IMG/VR virus record: IMGVR_UViG_3300033183_000299
Coordinates: 107,508 to 171,507 of that record
Strand: one strand, 5' to 3'
Length of the DNA: 64,000 nucleotides
From: a virus
Under the pieces are notes generated by a model. The model was not told the origin of the DNA. It ran no database searches and saw nothing but the letters and a program-made list of their open reading frames with translations. Of the stretch, positions 1,380-19,527 are shown piece after piece; within the stretch, counting starts at the first letter, position 1, and the number at the start of each line of letters is the position of its first letter. The position numbers and the translations under genes are program-made.

Positions 1380-3686
1380 TTACATTATAAAGAATTTCGA
1401 TTGCCCATCGGTGTAAATGTTGACTGACGTTCCCGCAGAGGCGAGAGTTAGACTGTTTCTATTTTCAATGAGTTGGTTCGGTTGAGCGACAACTTGGATT
1501 AGGTGCTGGTCAGCGGTCTCGGATTCATCCTTGAGAACCATGATTTGACCATTGAATAGTGTTGATGCATCTGGCAGTGTGATGACAATGTCTGACTGCG
1601 CTTGGATACCAATAAAGTAGTCAGTAGTGGAAACTCGATAATCTTCAGAGACAACGACCCTGTTCCTCACTTCTATGCCTGATTGCACTGCTGGTGAGAG
1701 GATAACGTTTCCATTTGCATCAATAGATAGGAAATTACTTGATGATCCCTGAGGGACATTTGATAGATTTAAACTAGGAACCTTGACTATACCCGAGGAT
1801 GGTATCAGATGTAGGTCTCCATCATCTTCAACATGTATATCGGCATATGTATGAGATGATATTCCGAACACCTCTTCTGTATTTGTTAGTCTTAATTGTG
1901 GATTAGAATCTTTTATCTCGACCTTCCTATTAGCATTTGAAGTCCCAACCGCCAAGGAAGATCCAACATTAAGATTGTTCGCAATCCCAGCGTCACCGCT
2001 TACATTAAGAAAGTCTAAGGAGCCAACTTGAGTTATATTTGGCTGCTGAGGTGTCTGAACTTGCCCTGTTATTGTTGAAGCATTAACGCTAGAAGCATTT
2101 AGGGTCGGTGTAGTCACGCTGCTGGACGCTATGACTGTATCTCCATTGGTAATCGTGTTTGTCTCAAGATTATTGAAGATACCCAGATCTGAGGAAACGG
2201 ACACCGAAGATGAGATAGTACCAACGTCAGACAATATAATATCGTCACTAGGGCCTACACGAAGGTCTCCAAAGACTTTTGTTGAGTTTGCTATGTCTAT
2301 GGTGCCTACATTGGTAGAGAGCGTTGTGGAGCTATTTGAGACGTTTATAGATAGCTTATTTGTTTGAGTTCCAACCTTGAATTGATTTGAGGGAGACTCA
2401 ACCATCAATTTGGCTTCCGGACTGGTTGCCCCAATACCAACTGTATCTTCATTAATAAATATCTCATTCGCAATTGCTAGGCCATTTGGGGCCGTTATTG
2501 TTGATGCGTTTATAGTAACGGTATCTGTAGCTGCGTCTCCAAGAGTCATTGTGTCCGCAGATACAACAAAGTCCGTTGTTCTTGCGTGAAGCGTGCCTGT
2601 AATATAGAGGTCTCCAGATATCCCAACGTCTCCTTGGACATCTAGGGAGTAGCTTGGACTAGTTGTATTGATACCAACTCGATTGTTTGTTGGAAGTATG
2701 TGGAAGTTACCATCAGAATCAGTTCCTATATCGGTATGTCTTTCTGAGAAGGCCGGAAGAAATGTGCCCGGTTGAATTGTGGCGGCGGATGAAAGCCTAA
2801 GTTGCGATCCTAAGCCATCAAAAACTTCTAATCTTCTTGAAGGGACACCGGTTCCAATACCAACTCGATCGTTTTTTACAACGAGATCTCTTATTCCAAC
2901 TTCCAACCCTTCTTCAACAACCATATATTCAAAACCAGCGATTGAAGAATTTTCCGTGGTCGCAAAGGATGTTGGAGAAATGGAAGTGGTACCTCCGGCC
3001 TGTGTAGTTGAGATGTTTGTTTGAGTCTCCCCTGTACCAGCGTCTAGAATCACTTTTCCGTTTACATCAACAATTCTACCGGTGAGGATGATATCTCCAG
3101 CTCTCATATTTGAAGACGTTAAGTAAGTTGAAGTTGTTTGAGCTGATGTGAGTTCTTCCGTCTCGGCTATGTCAAAATATGCAAGAGAAGAGCTAAGTTC
3201 ATCTGTCTGTATGGTTCCAGTAACATATAGAGTGTCGTTCTCGTAACTAAGGTTTGACTCTGTCTTGATTGCTTTTTGGCCACCTCCGAGAACAAGATGG
3301 TTTACCTCTTGGGTCTCGTATGTATTTACGGCAACGCCAATTAGATTGGCTCCGTTACCATAAAGGTTTGTCGCCGTTATATCCCCAGAAGCATCTAAAT
3401 CGCCAGTTAAAGATATGGATCCTGTGAATTGATGCTCGTCATCTAGAGTGTCTCCGAACTTTGAGGAACCAGTAACATCAAGGTGAACAACGGTCGTTGT
3501 TTGAGATTGGATCTCAAAGTTTTTTGCTATGATGTTCCCAGAGACAACAAGCGCTTCGTCATCTTCTGACCATACAAGTTTGCTGTCATGGTCTAAGTTG
3601 GTATCAGATCCTGCTATCTGAATAGAACCCTTAGGTCCAGAAGCCTCCGAACCAACAACATATGCCCAACCTTGTTCCAAAGCCAT
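1380..3686 (-). CDS. Tail fibre-like virion protein
   Basis: 768 aa. Repeated VGIGT..P...L.V beta motifs, GSTKFGD-like motif (GSSKFGDTLDDEHQFTGS), C-terminal ITLPDA...LKDE domain. Confidence 0.7.
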   Translation of the reverse strand: MALEQGWAYVVGSEASGPKGSIQIAGSDTNLDHDSKLVWSEDDEALVVSGNIIAKNFEIQSQTTTVVHLDVTGSSKFGDTLDDEHQFTGSISLTGDLDASGDITATNLYGNGANLIGVAVNTYETQEVNHLVLGGGQKAIKTESNLSYENDTLYVTGTIQTDELSSSLAYFDIAETEELTSAQTTSTYLTSSNMRAGDIILTGRIVDVNGKVILDAGTGETQTNISTTQAGGTTSISPTSFATTENSSIAGFEYMVVEEGLEVGIRDLVVKNDRVGIGTGVPSRRLEVFDGLGSQLRLSSAATIQPGTFLPAFSERHTDIGTDSDGNFHILPTNNRVGINTTSPSYSLDVQGDVGISGDLYITGTLHARTTDFVVSADTMTLGDAATDTVTINASTITAPNGLAIANEIFINEDTVGIGATSPEAKLMVESPSNQFKVGTQTNKLSINVSNSSTTLSTNVGTIDIANSTKVFGDLRVGPSDDIILSDVGTISSSVSVSSDLGIFNNLETNTITNGDTVIASSSVTTPTLNASSVNASTITGQVQTPQQPNITQVGSLDFLNVSGDAGIANNLNVGSSLAVGTSNANRKVEIKDSNPQLRLTNTEEVFGISSHTYADIHVEDDGDLHLIPSSGIVKVPSLNLSNVPQGSSSNFLSIDANGNVILSPAVQSGIEVRNRVVVSEDYRVSTTDYFIGIQAQSDIVITLPDASTLFNGQIMVLKDESETADQHLIQVVAQPNQLIENRNSLTLASAGTSVNIYTDGQSKFFIM

Positions 3687-4756
3687 TACTCATCGATTCC
3701 TGGTCCGGTTAGCTCATACATGTTATCTGCAGGGATGCTCGTAAGGGAAGCGAGAATATCAATTTGAACATCCGCCCCATCAGCATAGATGTGAAGTTTT
3801 TTGAATTTTCCGTTAAATTCAAAAACATCTTTGCCCACTAATGAGATAGTATTGTTGAAGGTTGCGGAGTTGGATTGAACGAACCATCCTTCCTTGGAAT
3901 CGACAAAAGATGCGTCTGTTGAGCCGTTATTGTTCAAAGTCAAGTTTGCTATCCCAACTCTGTCTTGAATGGTGGTTATTGTATCCACCCCATTTGAATC
4001 TATAAAGTCTCCAACACCAACTCCGTCTTCAATTGCCCACCAATGTAGAAGATTCGCCAAAGCAGAGTGGCTTCTTGGATCAAGATAATTTCCTTCATTT
4101 AGTAATTCTATGACCTCTTGTTCGCTCAAGCTTTTATTCCAAAAAGAAATGGAATCATATGGGCCATCAAAGACACCTGCACTAACATTTGAAAAACGTA
4201 GCTCTCTGATACCATTAGACCTACTATTTGCTTGATTTACGACAGCTACACCGTCAACAAAAATTTTAAAAATTCCGGATGAGTTATCGTATTGATATGT
4301 AAAGTGATGCCACTCATCAAAAGAGAAGTTTTCCACACTAGCGCTTATCGAAGTTCCACCAGTATTAGATTGGTTTATTTCCAAAGAGTCTCCATTCTTG
4401 TTTAAGTATAGAAAATCGTTCGCATACCCACACTGCAATACAGATACTTGACTAGTTGTAAGATTACCCGTATACATCCAAAAGGATACGGTAAATGTTG
4501 TATGAGTCACACCTACATTTGTACGATACCAATCATCTGGTTCAATATCTATTGCCCTAGAGCGTTGCATAAACATATCTCTAAAGCCAAGATAAGCCGT
4601 ACCACTTGTTGACTGTTTTTTAATCCTAATTCCCTTTGAAACGTTGGGAAGCTCAATGATTGCTTGAGTTCCACTTGAGACCGTTAAGGTCTTCACCCAG
4701 GGTCGACCAGATACCTGATATGAGCCAACATTTTGTAAACCAACTGAATAAGCCAT
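3686..4756 (-). CDS. Virion protein of the GL..VGxYQVSGRPW family with an inserted LamG/ConA-like domain
   Basis: N- and C-termini are paralogous to 4756..5166. Central FTVSFW...WHHF...KIFVDG...D.ISFWNKSLS LamG motifs. Confidence 0.7.
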   Translation of the reverse strand: MAYSVGLQNVGSYQVSGRPWVKTLTVSSGTQAIIELPNVSKGIRIKKQSTSGTAYLGFRDMFMQRSRAIDIEPDDWYRTNVGVTHTTFTVSFWMYTGNLTTSQVSVLQCGYANDFLYLNKNGDSLEINQSNTGGTSISASVENFSFDEWHHFTYQYDNSSGIFKIFVDGVAVVNQANSRSNGIRELRFSNVSAGVFDGPYDSISFWNKSLSEQEVIELLNEGNYLDPRSHSALANLLHWWAIEDGVGVGDFIDSNGVDTITTIQDRVGIANLTLNNNGSTDASFVDSKEGWFVQSNSATFNNTISLVGKDVFEFNGKFKKLHIYADGADVQIDILASLTSIPADNMYELTGPGIDE

Positions 4757-15073: not shown

Positions 15074-17683
15074 TTACAATTTGACTTGTGCATACCCGTC
15101 AGTCTTATCGATCTCAATTGTTGTATCAACAATGTCCTTGAGACTTTCTAAATGAGTGATCAGCAATACTGTTTTGAATTGAGTTTTGATCATCTGAAGT
15201 AATTGAACAAAACCTTCCATATGCTCAGCATCTAATGCCGTTGCCGGTTCATCAAGAATGAATAGTTGGCTCTTTGGTAGAGACGATACTGAGATTAGGG
15301 CAAGTCGAACAGCCATAGAAGCAATTGTCTTTTCAGCACCAGACCCCATGGACAATGGTCGAGCATCATATTTCGGATGCTTTAGGTAGACCTCCAACTT
15401 ATCTCCATCCTCAGCAAAGAACACTTGAAAATCAACGATGGAAGAAAGAACTTTTTGGATCTCATCGTTGATGATTGGAAGCATTGATTTGATAACTTCG
15501 TATGAAATTCCATTCGCATGAGTTGCTTTTACAAAGATGTCATAAGCAATGTAATCACGCTCAGCTTCTTTGATTTGTTCAATTCTCTCATTGGCTTCCT
15601 GAATCATACGTTCAGCAGAACCTTTTTCAGACATGTACCCAAGAACCTTTTCATCGCATCGTTTGATATCGGCAATCTTCAAATCAACAGTCTTATTGAT
15701 TGCTAATAAGTCTCTCTTAAGGGAGGAAAGGTTTTCATACGCTTCAATGTTTTCGTTGTAGTATGCGATATCTGAATTGAGCTTCTCGATACGATGCTCA
15801 GCTAAAGATGCTTTACCTTCAAAGTTTTCCCACTGAATACTCATGTTTCTGATTTCATCAGTTAGTTTCTTATGAGATGTTTTGCTATCTGAATATCGAT
15901 TGATAATGTTGTTCAGCGCTTCTTCATCAAACAAAGAACCTTTCATTTTAAGATCCAAAAGCTTTGACTTGATGTCTTCAATCTCAATATTCATTGGAGG
16001 TACTTTGCTTTTTGCTGCTTCCGCTTCCTTTACAAACTCATTATCGCAACAATATTTACAATCCGGATCGTACTCATGACCTTTGAGCATATCTATCTTT
16101 GATTGTAAGTTATCTCTCTTACGAGTTTTGCTTTGGAGGTCTTTGGTCAACTCTTTTAATTCTGACTTGATGGTCTCTAGGTCTTTGAGTTCAAGTTCAG
16201 CCTTATTGGAAGCTTCAAGCATGCTTGGAAGAGAAGAGGTCAAATCTTCAATCTGAGAGCGTTTTGACTTAATCTTGGTAGACAATGCCTCCATTTGATT
16301 GCGAGAACTTGAGAGTGTCTTTTCGGCCTCTTTAAGAAGTGATTTGACTGAATCAATATCTATCTCTTTTTGGGATGCTGCCTCTACTTGTTCTTTGATC
16401 ATCGTTTGTTCTTGTTTAAGGGTATCTAAACGGATATTGTGTCGATCGCATAAGTCTTTTTGAACCTCGATATCTTCAAGGATCTCGGACAACTCCTCTT
16501 TCGCTCGAGACAATTTCTTATCCCAATCAGCAGATTGAAGATGTTTGATTACGCCACGCATTTCGGCAGAGTCTTGCTTTGCTAGTTTGTGCATTTGATC
16601 AAATATTTGAAGATCCAAAAACTTAGCCAGAATTTCTTTGCGTTTCGTTGATCCTTCGCTGATAAATCCAAAAGAATCGTTCTGTGCTGCTAGAGAGGTC
16701 ATCATAAAGTCCTCTAATGACCCAAAAGTATCCTTGATGTTATCATCAGTTTTGTTTCGGGTATCTCCATTTTTGGACTCCGGAGTTGTTCCAAAGTTAT
16801 ACTTTGTAAAGTCTAGCTCTGTTTTAGCCGAGATGACTTCTCGACCTTTAGACTTTCCGGTTGTTTTTTCGAGGCTTCGAGCAATTTTATAAACATCATC
16901 GCCGACAGCGATCTCGAGCTTACAAGAAGCTCTTTCTTGGTTTTGATTGATGATATGGACATTCTTTCTTTCTCCCTTAGATGTAGTATTAAATAGGCCA
17001 AACAAAGCAGCGTCAATAATTGAAGACTTGCCTGAATAGTTTTTACCGAAGATGCCCACAAGCCCATTTAACTTGCTGAAATCTAGAGTATTGCCTTTTC
17101 CGTAATTAAATAGGTAGTCCCACTTCATTTTCTTAATATCCCAAACAACATTTCGAGATACGCCGTTCGATGAATCAACTTTCTTTAAATACTCTTGCGA
17201 AAGCTCAACTACGCGATCTTTGACTGAGTCTTCAACTTCATTTGTCTCCATAAATTCACGAAGAAACTTTTCTTGATTCTTTGGGTCTCGCATGTTGATT
17301 GCCTTACCGCCATTGGCTGAAGACACCGAAGCTGATGACTGAGAATTGTTTACAAAAGAAACCGAATGAGTCGACCACTTAACTTGGGCGTAATCGCAGG
17401 CTCTCTTTAATTTTGCTGTGGGTAAGTTATAATTACAAACCAATCGTAAACGAGCATTCTTGGGTACATCTACATTGGGTAGTGTACCATCTTGATTTAG
17501 ATGCACTGTAATAAATGGTCGAGGAGATTGGAATAATCTTTTCTCGATTGAATGCTTGTCTTTGGAGTGAATATTCCAAATCAAATAACCTTTTAGGCGA
17601 GACTCTCCAAAGTTCTGTTGCACAGTGCTGCCTGCATAAATGCAGATGCACTTCTTTTTTCTTAATTTAATTTTTTTAGCCAT
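15074..17683 (-). CDS. SbcD/Mre11 C-terminal fragment fused to SbcC/Rad50 (gp46-like) ATPase
   Basis: Begins MAKKIKLRKKKCICIYAGSTVQQNFGE (the YxGS strand of SbcD). GKNYSGKSS Walker A, CKYC zinc hook, SMGSGAEK signature, FILDEP Walker B. Confidence 0.9.
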   Translation of the reverse strand: MAKKIKLRKKKCICIYAGSTVQQNFGESRLKGYLIWNIHSKDKHSIEKRLFQSPRPFITVHLNQDGTLPNVDVPKNARLRLVCNYNLPTAKLKRACDYAQVKWSTHSVSFVNNSQSSASVSSANGGKAINMRDPKNQEKFLREFMETNEVEDSVKDRVVELSQEYLKKVDSSNGVSRNVVWDIKKMKWDYLFNYGKGNTLDFSKLNGLVGIFGKNYSGKSSIIDAALFGLFNTTSKGERKNVHIINQNQERASCKLEIAVGDDVYKIARSLEKTTGKSKGREVISAKTELDFTKYNFGTTPESKNGDTRNKTDDNIKDTFGSLEDFMMTSLAAQNDSFGFISEGSTKRKEILAKFLDLQIFDQMHKLAKQDSAEMRGVIKHLQSADWDKKLSRAKEELSEILEDIEVQKDLCDRHNIRLDTLKQEQTMIKEQVEAASQKEIDIDSVKSLLKEAEKTLSSSRNQMEALSTKIKSKRSQIEDLTSSLPSMLEASNKAELELKDLETIKSELKELTKDLQSKTRKRDNLQSKIDMLKGHEYDPDCKYCCDNEFVKEAEAAKSKVPPMNIEIEDIKSKLLDLKMKGSLFDEEALNNIINRYSDSKTSHKKLTDEIRNMSIQWENFEGKASLAEHRIEKLNSDIAYYNENIEAYENLSSLKRDLLAINKTVDLKIADIKRCDEKVLGYMSEKGSAERMIQEANERIEQIKEAERDYIAYDIFVKATHANGISYEVIKSMLPIINDEIQKVLSSIVDFQVFFAEDGDKLEVYLKHPKYDARPLSMGSGAEKTIASMAVRLALISVSSLPKSQLFILDEPATALDAEHMEGFVQLLQMIKTQFKTVLLITHLESLKDIVDTTIEIDKTDGYAQVKL

Positions 17684-18471
17684 TTGTCCTCCATTTTATT
17701 TGACTTTTTTAAATTTTCTTTCCATGGAATGAATTGCAAGTTTGATATATCACCTATGATATCTGGGGATATATCGTTTAACCATCCATAGGAAATTGGT
17801 ATGATATGGTCCAAATGATAACAATCTTCATTCAAATCAGATCTCCCCCTTTTATCATAATGAGGCAAGGTAGATAAATCTTGAGATTCTGTTATTCTCT
17901 TTACTTGTTTATAATATCTTTCTTTATTGCTCAATTTGGCCTCATATTCTTCAAATGGAATTCCAACCATCGTCTCTATTAATGTTTTGCGTCGGCGCTC
18001 TATGACATCTGCATCAATCATAGAGGCTGCGAGTTCAAGCGAGCCGGAGCCATACATCTCTATGCATGTTTGTTCACATTTTTCTCGGCATTCTTTATTG
18101 GACCAATTGTGTCGAGAGCCATATTTTTCTAAATAAGTCTGTTTTCTCCTTTGAATAGATTCTGGTGACCATCCAAAATTATAGCCTGTTTCTTCAAAAA
18201 ATTTTTCTCTTGCTTCTTCTCGAGAAGACAAAACTTTGTCGACATAGTCTTCGTCTTTCCAAAATTCAATCATTGCTTTAGATTTCAAGAGTTTTGATTT
18301 CTCAGACTGCTCTTTCCCATACATATGGTTTCCTTCACCTTTCATTATTTTCTTTTTATGTTCATCGACGCAGTTTCTAGAGCAATAGTGTCTTTTCGAT
18401 CTCTTGAGTCTAGATGTTGCTTTTTCAAATTCAACACAGCAATTATCGCACTTTATTTTAGTCATTTTCAT
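17662..18471 (-). mobile_element. Free-standing HNH homing endonuclease inserted in sbcD
   Basis: N-terminal CxxC...YCSRNC, NUMOD3-like GEGNHMYGK, KQTYLEKYG repeats, C-terminal HLDHIIP...NLQFIPWKENLKK. Has its own SD and late motif. Confidence 0.85.
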
Positions 18472-18506
18472 TTTTTACTCCTCCCTTATGTTTTGTTGGA
18501 TAGTAG

Positions 18507-18514
18507 TAAATAGT
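18507..18514 (-). promoter_or_regulatory. Putative late promoter ACTATTTA of the HNH gene
   Basis: Motif match between the sbcD-N stop and the HNH start. Confidence 0.6.
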
Positions 18515-18523
18515 TTTGCTGAA

Positions 18524-19210
18524 CTATTCTTCTACAATTTCCCAACCATTCTTGAGAAATTTATCTAATTCAGATTCATCAATCTCTATTTCTTCATATT
18601 CATTTTTATTGAAATCTGAAGTTCCGAGTCTTTGAGTCTTGTGAATATCTCCAAGCATGGCGTAATCAAAGTCTTCGAAAATTGAAACATCGTCTTCTCC
18701 ATGGTCCAATGAGAACCCACTTCCAACCATTGAGCCACGAACAGCTCCATGATACAAGGCTATGTTGATAGCGTTTTCATTAGATGGGGCTTGCCAATTA
18801 TCTCTATCGAACACAGAGAGAACATTGAAAGTCAGACCTGGCTCTGGAGAGTATTCGCCTGAGTTTTTCAGCAAAGTGAAATTTGGATGATTCATTGCCT
18901 CAACAATTGGAGTCACCGCATCTTGACGATCTCCATTTTTAAGATTTCCATCATGATTTCCAAGAATCATAATTGTTGGTGCGATATCTGCGAGAGACTT
19001 CAAAAAGTTAGAAGCCATCTCAAAATATTCTGGTGATAATTGTGTTTTTGTGTGAGCAAGGTCACCAGTATGTACAATGTAGTCTGGTTGCTCTTGCTTT
19101 AATGAGTCATATATTTGATTAAACACGTGACGATATTCGTCATGATATTTAAGGTTTCGGATGTGTGTGTCACTAATGTGGCTAATTCTAAACATTTTTT
19201 TCTTAGTCAT
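18524..19210 (-). CDS. SbcD/Mre11 (gp47-like) nuclease N-terminal fragment with an acidic C-terminal tag
   Basis: HISDTH, HTGDL, LGNHD, YHG, LGDIH metallophosphoesterase motifs, followed by a non-homologous acidic tail. Confidence 0.9.
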   Translation of the reverse strand: MTKKKMFRISHISDTHIRNLKYHDEYRHVFNQIYDSLKQEQPDYIVHTGDLAHTKTQLSPEYFEMASNFLKSLADIAPTIMILGNHDGNLKNGDRQDAVTPIVEAMNHPNFTLLKNSGEYSPEPGLTFNVLSVFDRDNWQAPSNENAINIALYHGAVRGSMVGSGFSLDHGEDDVSIFEDFDYAMLGDIHKTQRLGTSDFNKNEYEEIEIDESELDKFLKNGWEIVEE

Positions 19211-19527
19211 TTGTCCTCCATGATCTTGTTGCGTATTTCTAATGTAACACGATTTGATTGATGTGTCAAGTAAAAATCTTCACTTTCTTCAAAAAAAAGT
19301 GGACCACCCTTCATATGCGTTAGGTCCAAGGTGTTATATTCAAAAAATGTTATGGCCGTTCCATATTCCCAATGATTATACTTCCTCATACAATCCATGA
19401 GCATTTCTGTGTGATACACAAGTCTACCCCTATCAAAAGCTACAATTGCCTCATTGTAATGCTCTTGTGGCTCAATAATAATGAACTCGTGCCCTAACTC
19501 TAATCCTTCTTGGATAAATTTATTCAT
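19207..19527 (-). CDS. Hypothetical protein
   Basis: ATG 19527 with AGGAGGT SD and an early promoter upstream. Confidence 0.65.
   Translation of the reverse strand: MNKFIQEGLELGHEFIIIEPQEHYNEAIVAFDRGRLVYHTEMLMDCMRKYNHWEYGTAITFFEYNTLDLTHMKGGPLFFEESEDFYLTHQSNRVTLEIRNKIMEDK
19241..19269 (-). promoter_or_regulatory. Early sigma70-type promoter (sbcD)
   Basis: TTGACA-17 nt-TACATT with CGTGT extended -10. Confidence 0.75.

Follow-up and report, generated by a model that had tools for sequence, protein, structure and literature searches.

How a gene for a folded nuclease domain can be cut in two by an endonuclease gene, with neither an intron nor an intein to remove the interruption, is the question raised by a locus in the 64,000-nucleotide stretch analyzed here (hereafter the window), which spans positions 107,508 to 171,507 of IMGVR_UViG_3300033183_000299, a 183,930-base IMG/VR virus record rated complete, from a phage of approximately 184 kb. 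On the minus strand of the window, an SbcD/Mre11-type gene is present as an N-half, an HNH homing-endonuclease gene and a C-half fused to SbcC, all co-directional. The N-half ends in an acidic tail and the C-half begins with a basic head (together, the tags). Our analysis indicates that the endonuclease cassette and its tags are almost certainly mobile and conserved, and we propose that the tags may well act as a small joining domain through which the two parts of the broken enzyme come together. The features of the locus are as follows.

18524-19210, minus strand: SbcD/Mre11 N-half gene, 228 amino acids, with phosphoesterase motifs I-V and the 32-residue acidic tail at its end.
18524-18622, minus strand: acidic tail, residues 197-228 plus the stop codon; in the tail family alignment, a linker is followed by a strand of alternating acidic and hydrophobic residues, then by a helix and finally by a G-W strand.
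18472-18523, minus strand: spacer of 52 nucleotides containing the endonuclease gene's ribosome-binding site, the sole non-coding DNA of the cassette.
17662-18471, minus strand: free-standing HNH homing-endonuclease gene, 269 amino acids; the product begins with a zinc-finger/NUMOD3/DUF7487 region and has its HNH motif in the C-terminal part.
17651-17683, minus strand: basic head, C-half residues 1-11, its start codon and ribosome-binding site lying within the last 22 nucleotides of the endonuclease gene.
15074-17683, minus strand: C-half gene, 869 amino acids, with the last nuclease-domain strands, capping domain, SbcC/Rad50 ATPase, coiled coil and CxxC hook.
17627-18632, minus strand: mobile cassette, 1006 nucleotides replacing 40, over which DNA homology to the empty allele L015 is lost; 33.5% G+C vs. 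approximately 39% in the flanks.
17591-17626, minus strand: probable co-conversion tract in the 3' flank, closer to split alleles than to the empty allele.
19241-19269, minus strand: promoter-like site with 10 of 12 matches and a TG, 5' of the N-half; a consensus match only, with site counts no higher than in shuffles.

Residues 2-196 of the N-half correspond to the Metallophos/SbcD homology (Pfam Metallophos, expectation value (E) = 8e-15; PHROGs SbcD-like), and D14, H16, G49, D50, G84, N85, H86, D87, H154, G187, D188 and H190 were invariant in 43 split alleles. The five metal-binding motifs (DxH, GD, GNH[DE], H and GxxH) all lie within this half and, together with the nuclease/capping-domain fold predicted for a homologue by AlphaFold2 (AF2), mark the protein as a calcineurin-like phosphoesterase of the Mre11/SbcD type; the model, which covers the first 340 residues of the homologue, matched the SbcD/Mre11 structures 7dog, 4tug, 3tho, 4lty and 6s6v at a Foldseek probability of 1.0. 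The C-half, which has its own GGAGG and ATG, has the predicted hallmarks of an SbcC/Rad50 SMC-type ATPase, namely ATPase lobes, a coiled coil and a CxxC zinc hook (Pfam AAA_23 and SMC_N; PHROG SbcC-like, E = 6.5e-60; a CxxC pair in the middle of the translation). Between them, the 269-residue open reading frame (ORF) matched NUMOD3/DUF7487 in Pfam and, in PHROGs, homing endonuclease (E = 2.3e-8) and HNH endonuclease (E = 5.9e-5). None of the Pfam HNH models reached threshold on this ORF; the H-x-D-H...N...N signature itself was found, with H219, D221, H222, N244 and N253 invariant among six homologues. The first-pass annotation had described an SbcD gene split by a free-standing HNH cassette without intron or intein, a description borne out by Pfam, PHROGs, Rfam and the empty alleles presented below. 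Its residue counts, 12 acidic and 3 basic in the 32-residue tail and 7 basic of 11 in the head, were likewise right, as were the GGAGG and ATG that it had noted for the C-half.

Related phages usually encode SbcD-SbcC as a single chain of approximately 1050 amino acids, as is the case for Microcystis phage Mel-JY01 (P0001) and for most of the 150 best representatives. The break point in the window is the β-hairpin directly after phosphoesterase motif V, where P0001 and P0272 have a 9-residue hairpin in place of the tail, endonuclease and head. For the uninterrupted P0272 (locus L015), identity to the window reached 95.3% across 192 residues of the N part and 96.5% across 856 residues of the C part (P0272 residues 196-1051). 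In the DNA, the window is homologous to L015 as far as position 18633 and again from 17626, with 1006 nucleotides standing in place of 40. By this comparison the inserted block (17627-18632) is approximately 10-24 nucleotides wider on each side than the bounds proposed earlier, 17651-18622. The nearest relatives of the N-half (P0004, P0006 and P0007, 83-90% identical) were likewise uninterrupted. Since alleles 95-96% identical to that of the window lack both tags in the alignment, the tags are cassette-borne, as the first-pass annotation had held.

Scanning IMG/VR with the N-half alignment returned uninterrupted genes at all of the best 80 loci (80/80), among which there was neither a new split locus nor a split locus devoid of an endonuclease; a DNA-level search of cultured phage genomes gave no match. 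The hairpin site is a permissive loop. In other intact homologues the hairpin measures 14 to 27 residues, and the otherwise uninterrupted P0218 (668 amino acids) carries an unrelated, strand-rich insert of approximately 33 residues in the same hairpin. A second apparent split, at L009:5700-5900 (GCA_025933435.1 contig), was considered as a cassette and rejected: the allele, 83% identical to the window N-half, is uninterrupted apart from a frameshift approximately 70 codons past the hairpin, which makes two ORFs and may stem either from misassembly or from a genuine lesion.

Several lines of evidence pointed to mobility of the cassette. Over the first 60 aligned nucleotides of the 3' flank, the window was 68% identical to the empty allele L015 vs. 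88% to the split alleles L003/L016, while over the next 800 nucleotides the relation was inverted (93-100% identical to L015 vs. 66-95% to L003/L016). A donor-like flank of approximately 35-60 nucleotides is the pattern expected of homing with a short co-conversion tract, which is the probable explanation here. Between L003 and L016, the cassette was 97-100% identical and the flanking gene 85-96%. We also built a FastTree phylogeny of 240 N-parts, leaving out the tag columns, and counted changes of the tag-bearing state along it. This state required 33 changes, of which at least 18 were retained when only branches with support of at least 95 were kept, and at least 10 at a support of at least 99. 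Presence and absence at a single site among close relatives, accompanied by co-conversion of the flank, is how a free-standing homing endonuclease is recognized, and the window locus shows both. Compared with L003, the endonuclease had a ratio of non-synonymous to synonymous differences (pN/pS) of 0.17, indicative of purifying selection, which was strong in the cores of both halves (approximately 0.10), as would be expected if the enzyme still functions.

Two further observations concern endonuclease genes. As called, the endonuclease ORF at L016:783-1541 lacks 11 codons at the 5' end relative to that at L003:1084-1875, to which it is 97-100% identical, possibly by a start-codon change. In addition, GIY-YIG genes at L006:3378-4016, in a split-allele phage, and at L001:3226-3738, in Mel-JY01, adjoin the primase gene just upstream of SbcD-SbcC, and homing endonucleases thus seem to favor this replication/repair block.

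The tags themselves form a family. Thirty-three split N-halves, with cores only 36-83% identical to that of the window, carry one tail pattern, composed of an alternating strand, a helix with a conserved L and Y-L, a G-W and an acidic strand, with a net charge of -2 to -10. Correspondingly, basic and hydrophobic residues alternate along a strand common to eight heads, whose net charge is +2 to +7, so that the opposite charges and alternating strand pattern pointed out in the first-pass annotation are properties of the family and not of the window alone. These are extensions that arise at the break, carry opposite charges and are absent from uninterrupted homologues, as is characteristic of element-derived tails. 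The recurrence of tail plus head in dozens of independent metagenomic alleles, as compared here, far exceeds chance. Moreover, the tags are not tied to one kind of nuclease: they accompany an HNH endonuclease in the window, L003, L004, L006, L007, L016 and L019, a TnsA-like nuclease in L002 and a Vsr-like one in L020. Direct BLASTP comparison of the window endonuclease with the intervening ORF of L002 gave weak zinc-finger similarity only. The stop codon, ribosome-binding site and ATG were kept in all split alleles.

Outside SbcD, the picture was different. An IMG/VR scan with the endonuclease alignment found four loci, three in SbcD and one (L021) between other genes, and at L021 there was no sign of the tag pair. 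These loci therefore offer no example of the tags in a host gene other than SbcD. Nor did the tail profile find a second copy in the window, or any copy outside SbcD tails in the fetched loci. The L021 element (IMGVR_UViG_3300035698_035310, 3414-4307) is a distant relative of the middle region of the endonuclease and lies between ORFs of 250 and 463 amino acids, the latter with an N-terminus resembling what we take to be a type II topoisomerase A-subunit motif.

Natural fused forms gave a view of how the two tags might be arranged together. In P0165 and P0202 (1089 amino acids each), a short linker joins tail and head into one loop of approximately 42 residues, and the endonuclease is absent. 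Each protein is represented by two or three independent contigs with typical phage surroundings, and together they account for 2 of approximately 150 representatives vs. approximately 14 split ones. They are sisters neither of each other nor of the split alleles, and their nearest neighbors on the tree are empty; we read them as more likely scars of endonuclease loss than ancestors. The AF2 model of P0165:1-340 had a mean predicted local distance difference test (pLDDT) score of 93, with the loop at 68-82, and placed in this loop a strand (193-198), a helix (200-208) and two further strands (212-216 and 226-232). When the N-half of the window was modeled alone, the tail helix (212-220) was predicted with a pLDDT of approximately 95 and the linker (193-204) below 50.

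On this basis, we propose that a free-standing HNH cassette of approximately 1 kb inserted into the surface β-hairpin after motif V of a single-chain SbcD-SbcC gene (comparable to Mre11-Rad50 and T4 gp47-gp46), where it would have taken the place of the 9-residue hairpin turn. The cassette supplies the stop codon of the N-half, the endonuclease gene, and the ribosome-binding site and start codon of the C-half, and adds the 32-residue acidic tail to the former and the 11-residue basic head to the latter. The halves would be translated separately, and the strand of the head would pair with the strand-helix-strand of the tail, and the four elements would make up a small domain continuing the native hairpin. 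Such a mini-domain would help the halves of the nuclease domain to reassemble, so that the insertion could be tolerated with no need for splicing of RNA or protein. We assign a probability of roughly 0.6 to the tags acting as a joining mini-domain of this kind.

Co-folding of the tail region (41 residues) with the head region (32 residues), from tag-region alignments only, gave interaction prediction scores from aligned errors (ipSAE) of 0.20-0.21, under the mark of 0.32, and speaks neither for nor against binding of the tags to each other. A number of observations weigh against the proposal. Folded alone, the N-half forms no tail strands, only the tail helix being confident, and the confidence of the mini-domain is moderate and comes from the model of a distant contiguous homologue. 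Of the split mini-domain put forward in the first-pass annotation, the strand-helix-strand plus strand architecture was recovered as an AF2 prediction in that contiguous homologue, and the non-covalent rejoining stays a proposal. With respect to L003, the pN/pS of the tail was 0.46, four times the core value of 0.10, and that of the head was 0.29. Overlap with the endonuclease frame and a translation-start preference could account in part for the A-rich, basic character of the head. Lastly, in the phage Aeh1 NrdA split by mobE, the tails are dispensable for association of the fragments and are needed for a later dimerization step (Crona et al. 2011, PMC3045599). Since the Aeh1 tails serve dimerization, a simple clasp may be the wrong detail here.

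The alternative that survives best, although we judge it unlikely, is that the tags are tolerated by-products of the junction, generated by read-through on the 5' side and by the start context on the 3' side, and that the large native interface of the nuclease domain reassembles the halves by itself. The confinement of the five metal-binding motifs to the N-half, the break in a surface hairpin of variable length, the unrelated insert of P0218 at the same site, the dispensability of the Aeh1 tails for heterodimer formation and the pN/pS of the tail are all compatible with it. However, pattern and charge of the tail persist in the 33 alleles in spite of their divergent N-halves, the tags persist alongside three unrelated nuclease domains, and tail and head are kept as one loop where the endonuclease is missing. 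Further, at a synonymous divergence of 0.6, junk would lose the L, YL and GW residues and the alternating-strand pattern.

We also weighed, as quite unlikely, a role of tail and head other than joining, such as SbcD dimerization, contact with Rad50 or DNA, or immunity of the occupied allele to the endonuclease, with the tail possibly a co-opted DNA-binding repeat of a homing endonuclease. Dimerization is the step in which the Aeh1 tails work, and the repeat has a counterpart in our data. A search of the protein collection with a 41-column tail profile matched the GIY-YIG endonuclease-like proteins P0392 and P0396 (database-wide E of 4e-10 and 2e-8). Each has four C-terminal repeats in which a basic strand is followed by the helix and G-W motif of the tail (a 17-residue motif), and a tail-only profile scored 11-22 bits per repeat vs. 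at most 4 bits for shuffled controls. No Pfam family covers the repeat of P0392 and P0396, and in the ESM Atlas the GIY-YIG repeat region drew only weak NUMOD3-type leads (scores of at most 0.82). Chryseobacterium phage MA9V-2 likewise has a GIY-YIG protein (OR513085.1 109759-110301) with a related repeat. The tail may thus descend from a DNA-binding repeat of a homing endonuclease, which would fit its origin in a mobile element. Against a DNA-binding function stands the strong acidity of the tail, which is unlike such a module, and the similarity to the repeats could be convergent.

A third alternative, which we hold to be very unlikely, turns the history around: the mini-domain would be an old, host-encoded loop of some SbcD lineages that endonucleases invaded later, and the tags would be host-derived. 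The first-pass annotation had named contiguous tag loops in endonuclease-free homologues as the finding that would lead to this view, and two rare lineages, P0165 and P0202, do possess them. Nevertheless, these sit among empty alleles on the tree and so do not make the tags of the window host-derived; they are sisters neither of each other nor of split alleles, and are rare compared with the split forms. In addition, alleles 83-96% identical to that of the window lack the entire loop, tags and nuclease were gained or lost together in the loci read, the tree demands at least 10-18 changes of state, and the window has a co-conversion tract.

Finally, removal of the interruption by a group I intron or split intein to give one polypeptide is hardly credible: endonuclease genes often sit within introns and inteins, and the related allele P0393 does have a LAGLIDADG intein, though at motif III, but no group I or group II intron was found in a permissive Rfam scan (E of at most 10) of both strands of 17000-19300, the cassette has only 52 non-coding nucleotides, no intein domain was matched by Pfam in either half, the 43 residues of tail plus head are too short for a HINT fold, and the stop codon, ribosome-binding site and ATG are conserved in all split alleles. 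P0393 itself (metagenomic, 516 amino acids) is an SbcD N-half with the LAGLIDADG-type intein in motif III (Pfam Intein_splicing 1.4e-7, below the curated cut-off) and an acidic tail at its end, which shows the same gene to be open to an intein and to an endonuclease cassette at two catalytic motifs.

Going beyond the joining mini-domain, we tentatively consider a portable 'cut-and-clasp' module, less probable than not to be correct as a whole: a conserved split mini-domain, possibly derived from a homing-endonuclease DNA-binding repeat, that would admit several kinds of endonuclease into a folded catalytic domain and would be left behind as a loop domain after loss of the endonuclease.

With regard to expression, consensus matching detected no promoter-like site within the cassette comparable to that upstream of the N-half, which makes a single transcript for all three genes plausible. 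An identical 14-mer comprising ribosome-binding site, spacer and ATG is present on the minus strand at the starts of the N-half (19208-19221) and of the C-half (17681-17694), and occurs nowhere else in the 64-kb window. L003 and L016 match it at 13 of 14 bases (first A to T), and it is absent in L004, L006 and L007. The shared 14-mer could be due to chance or to tuning for equal output of the halves.

In order to place the locus among known systems, we compared it with the published cases. An intein-less SbcD-like gene split by a Vsr-like endonuclease was described in the Lake Gatun data of the Global Ocean Sampling (GOS), its halves carrying additions of 25 residues (C-terminal) and 9 residues (N-terminal) not present in other SbcD proteins, and the endonuclease reading frame overlapping the one that follows (Dassa et al. 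2009, PMC2677866). It resembles the window in its two ORFs with a free-standing endonuclease between them, in the extra residues at both new ends, and in the overlap of the 3' end of the endonuclease gene with the start of the downstream half. It differs in the endonuclease, which is Vsr-like (as in L020 here) in the Gatun locus and HNH in the window. The Gatun paper noted the inserted residues and proposed neither a fold nor a function for them, and it treated one locus without analysis of empty alleles, co-conversion or distribution.

In Aeh1, oppositely charged tails that result from the mobE insertion are essential for the split NrdA, and such tails were predicted in other fragmented genes (Crona et al. 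2011, PMC3045599). The nrdA-a/mobE/nrdA-b arrangement (Friedrich et al. 2007; Crona et al. 2011) parallels that of the window, in that a free-standing endonuclease of the HNH family splits an essential enzyme gene between adjacent β-strands, the endonuclease gene overlaps the downstream gene and the insert is AT-rich. The Aeh1 tails, too, are of opposite charge, absent from intact homologues and ascribed to the insertion, and they act as protein interaction domains. However, their polarity is reversed, the C-terminal tail being basic and the N-terminal one acidic, whereas in the window the tail of the N-half is acidic and the head of the C-half basic. Active-site residues are shared between the Aeh1 fragments, whereas in the window all metal ligands are in the N-half. 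Moreover, Aeh1 is a single locus with experimental proof, whereas the present case is a large allele family with an apparently structured tag pair, known from sequence analysis only. The same authors speculated that the T4 gp39/mobA/gp60 topoisomerase split has oppositely charged, tail-like extensions (PMC3045599). As in the window, that split is associated with an endonuclease; the enzyme differs. T4 gene 60 also uses translational bypassing.

Genes fractured at split inteins share with the window the order of N-part with an appended piece, endonuclease, and appended piece with C-part, and electrostatic complementarity of the appended pieces was proposed for them (Dassa et al. 2009, PMC2677866). 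Unlike these genes, the window has neither a HINT domain nor identified splicing residues and, as its tags total 43 residues, its halves cannot be ligated. Regarding the enzyme, E. coli SbcCD, T4 gp47/gp46 and archaeal Mre11-Rad50 have the same nuclease and capping fold, five motifs and SMC-type ATPase with a CxxC hook as found here, whereas this phage group uses one chain of approximately 1050 amino acids, re-cut in the window at a non-canonical point within the nuclease domain.

Taken together, the interpretation offered in the first-pass annotation is partly supported. Its statement that no dedicated tags were known is contradicted by both of the studies cited above (Crona et al. 2011, PMC3045599; Dassa et al. 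2009, PMC2677866): the SbcD-like split (2009) and, for another enzyme, the concept of charged tails (2011) are already known, and the locus does not open a new category. New here are an HNH-bearing member, an empty allele of 95-96% identity with a co-conversion tract, patchiness across the whole tree, a single tag pair shared by three nuclease types, the naturally fused proteins and the link to an endonuclease repeat.

The locus and its relatives offer a population-scale view of a selfish endonuclease that lives inside an essential gene without intron or intein, in which the insert would bring its own means of mending the break at the protein level. The tail hypothesis has so far rested on the single case of Aeh1 NrdA, and the many alleles, near-identical empty sites, three kinds of nuclease and natural fused forms collected here are suited to a clean experimental test. 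The tag pair could serve as a small natural split-protein tag and, if the portable module were true, it would be one shaped by evolution, and a mobile element would have given a structural domain to an essential enzyme.

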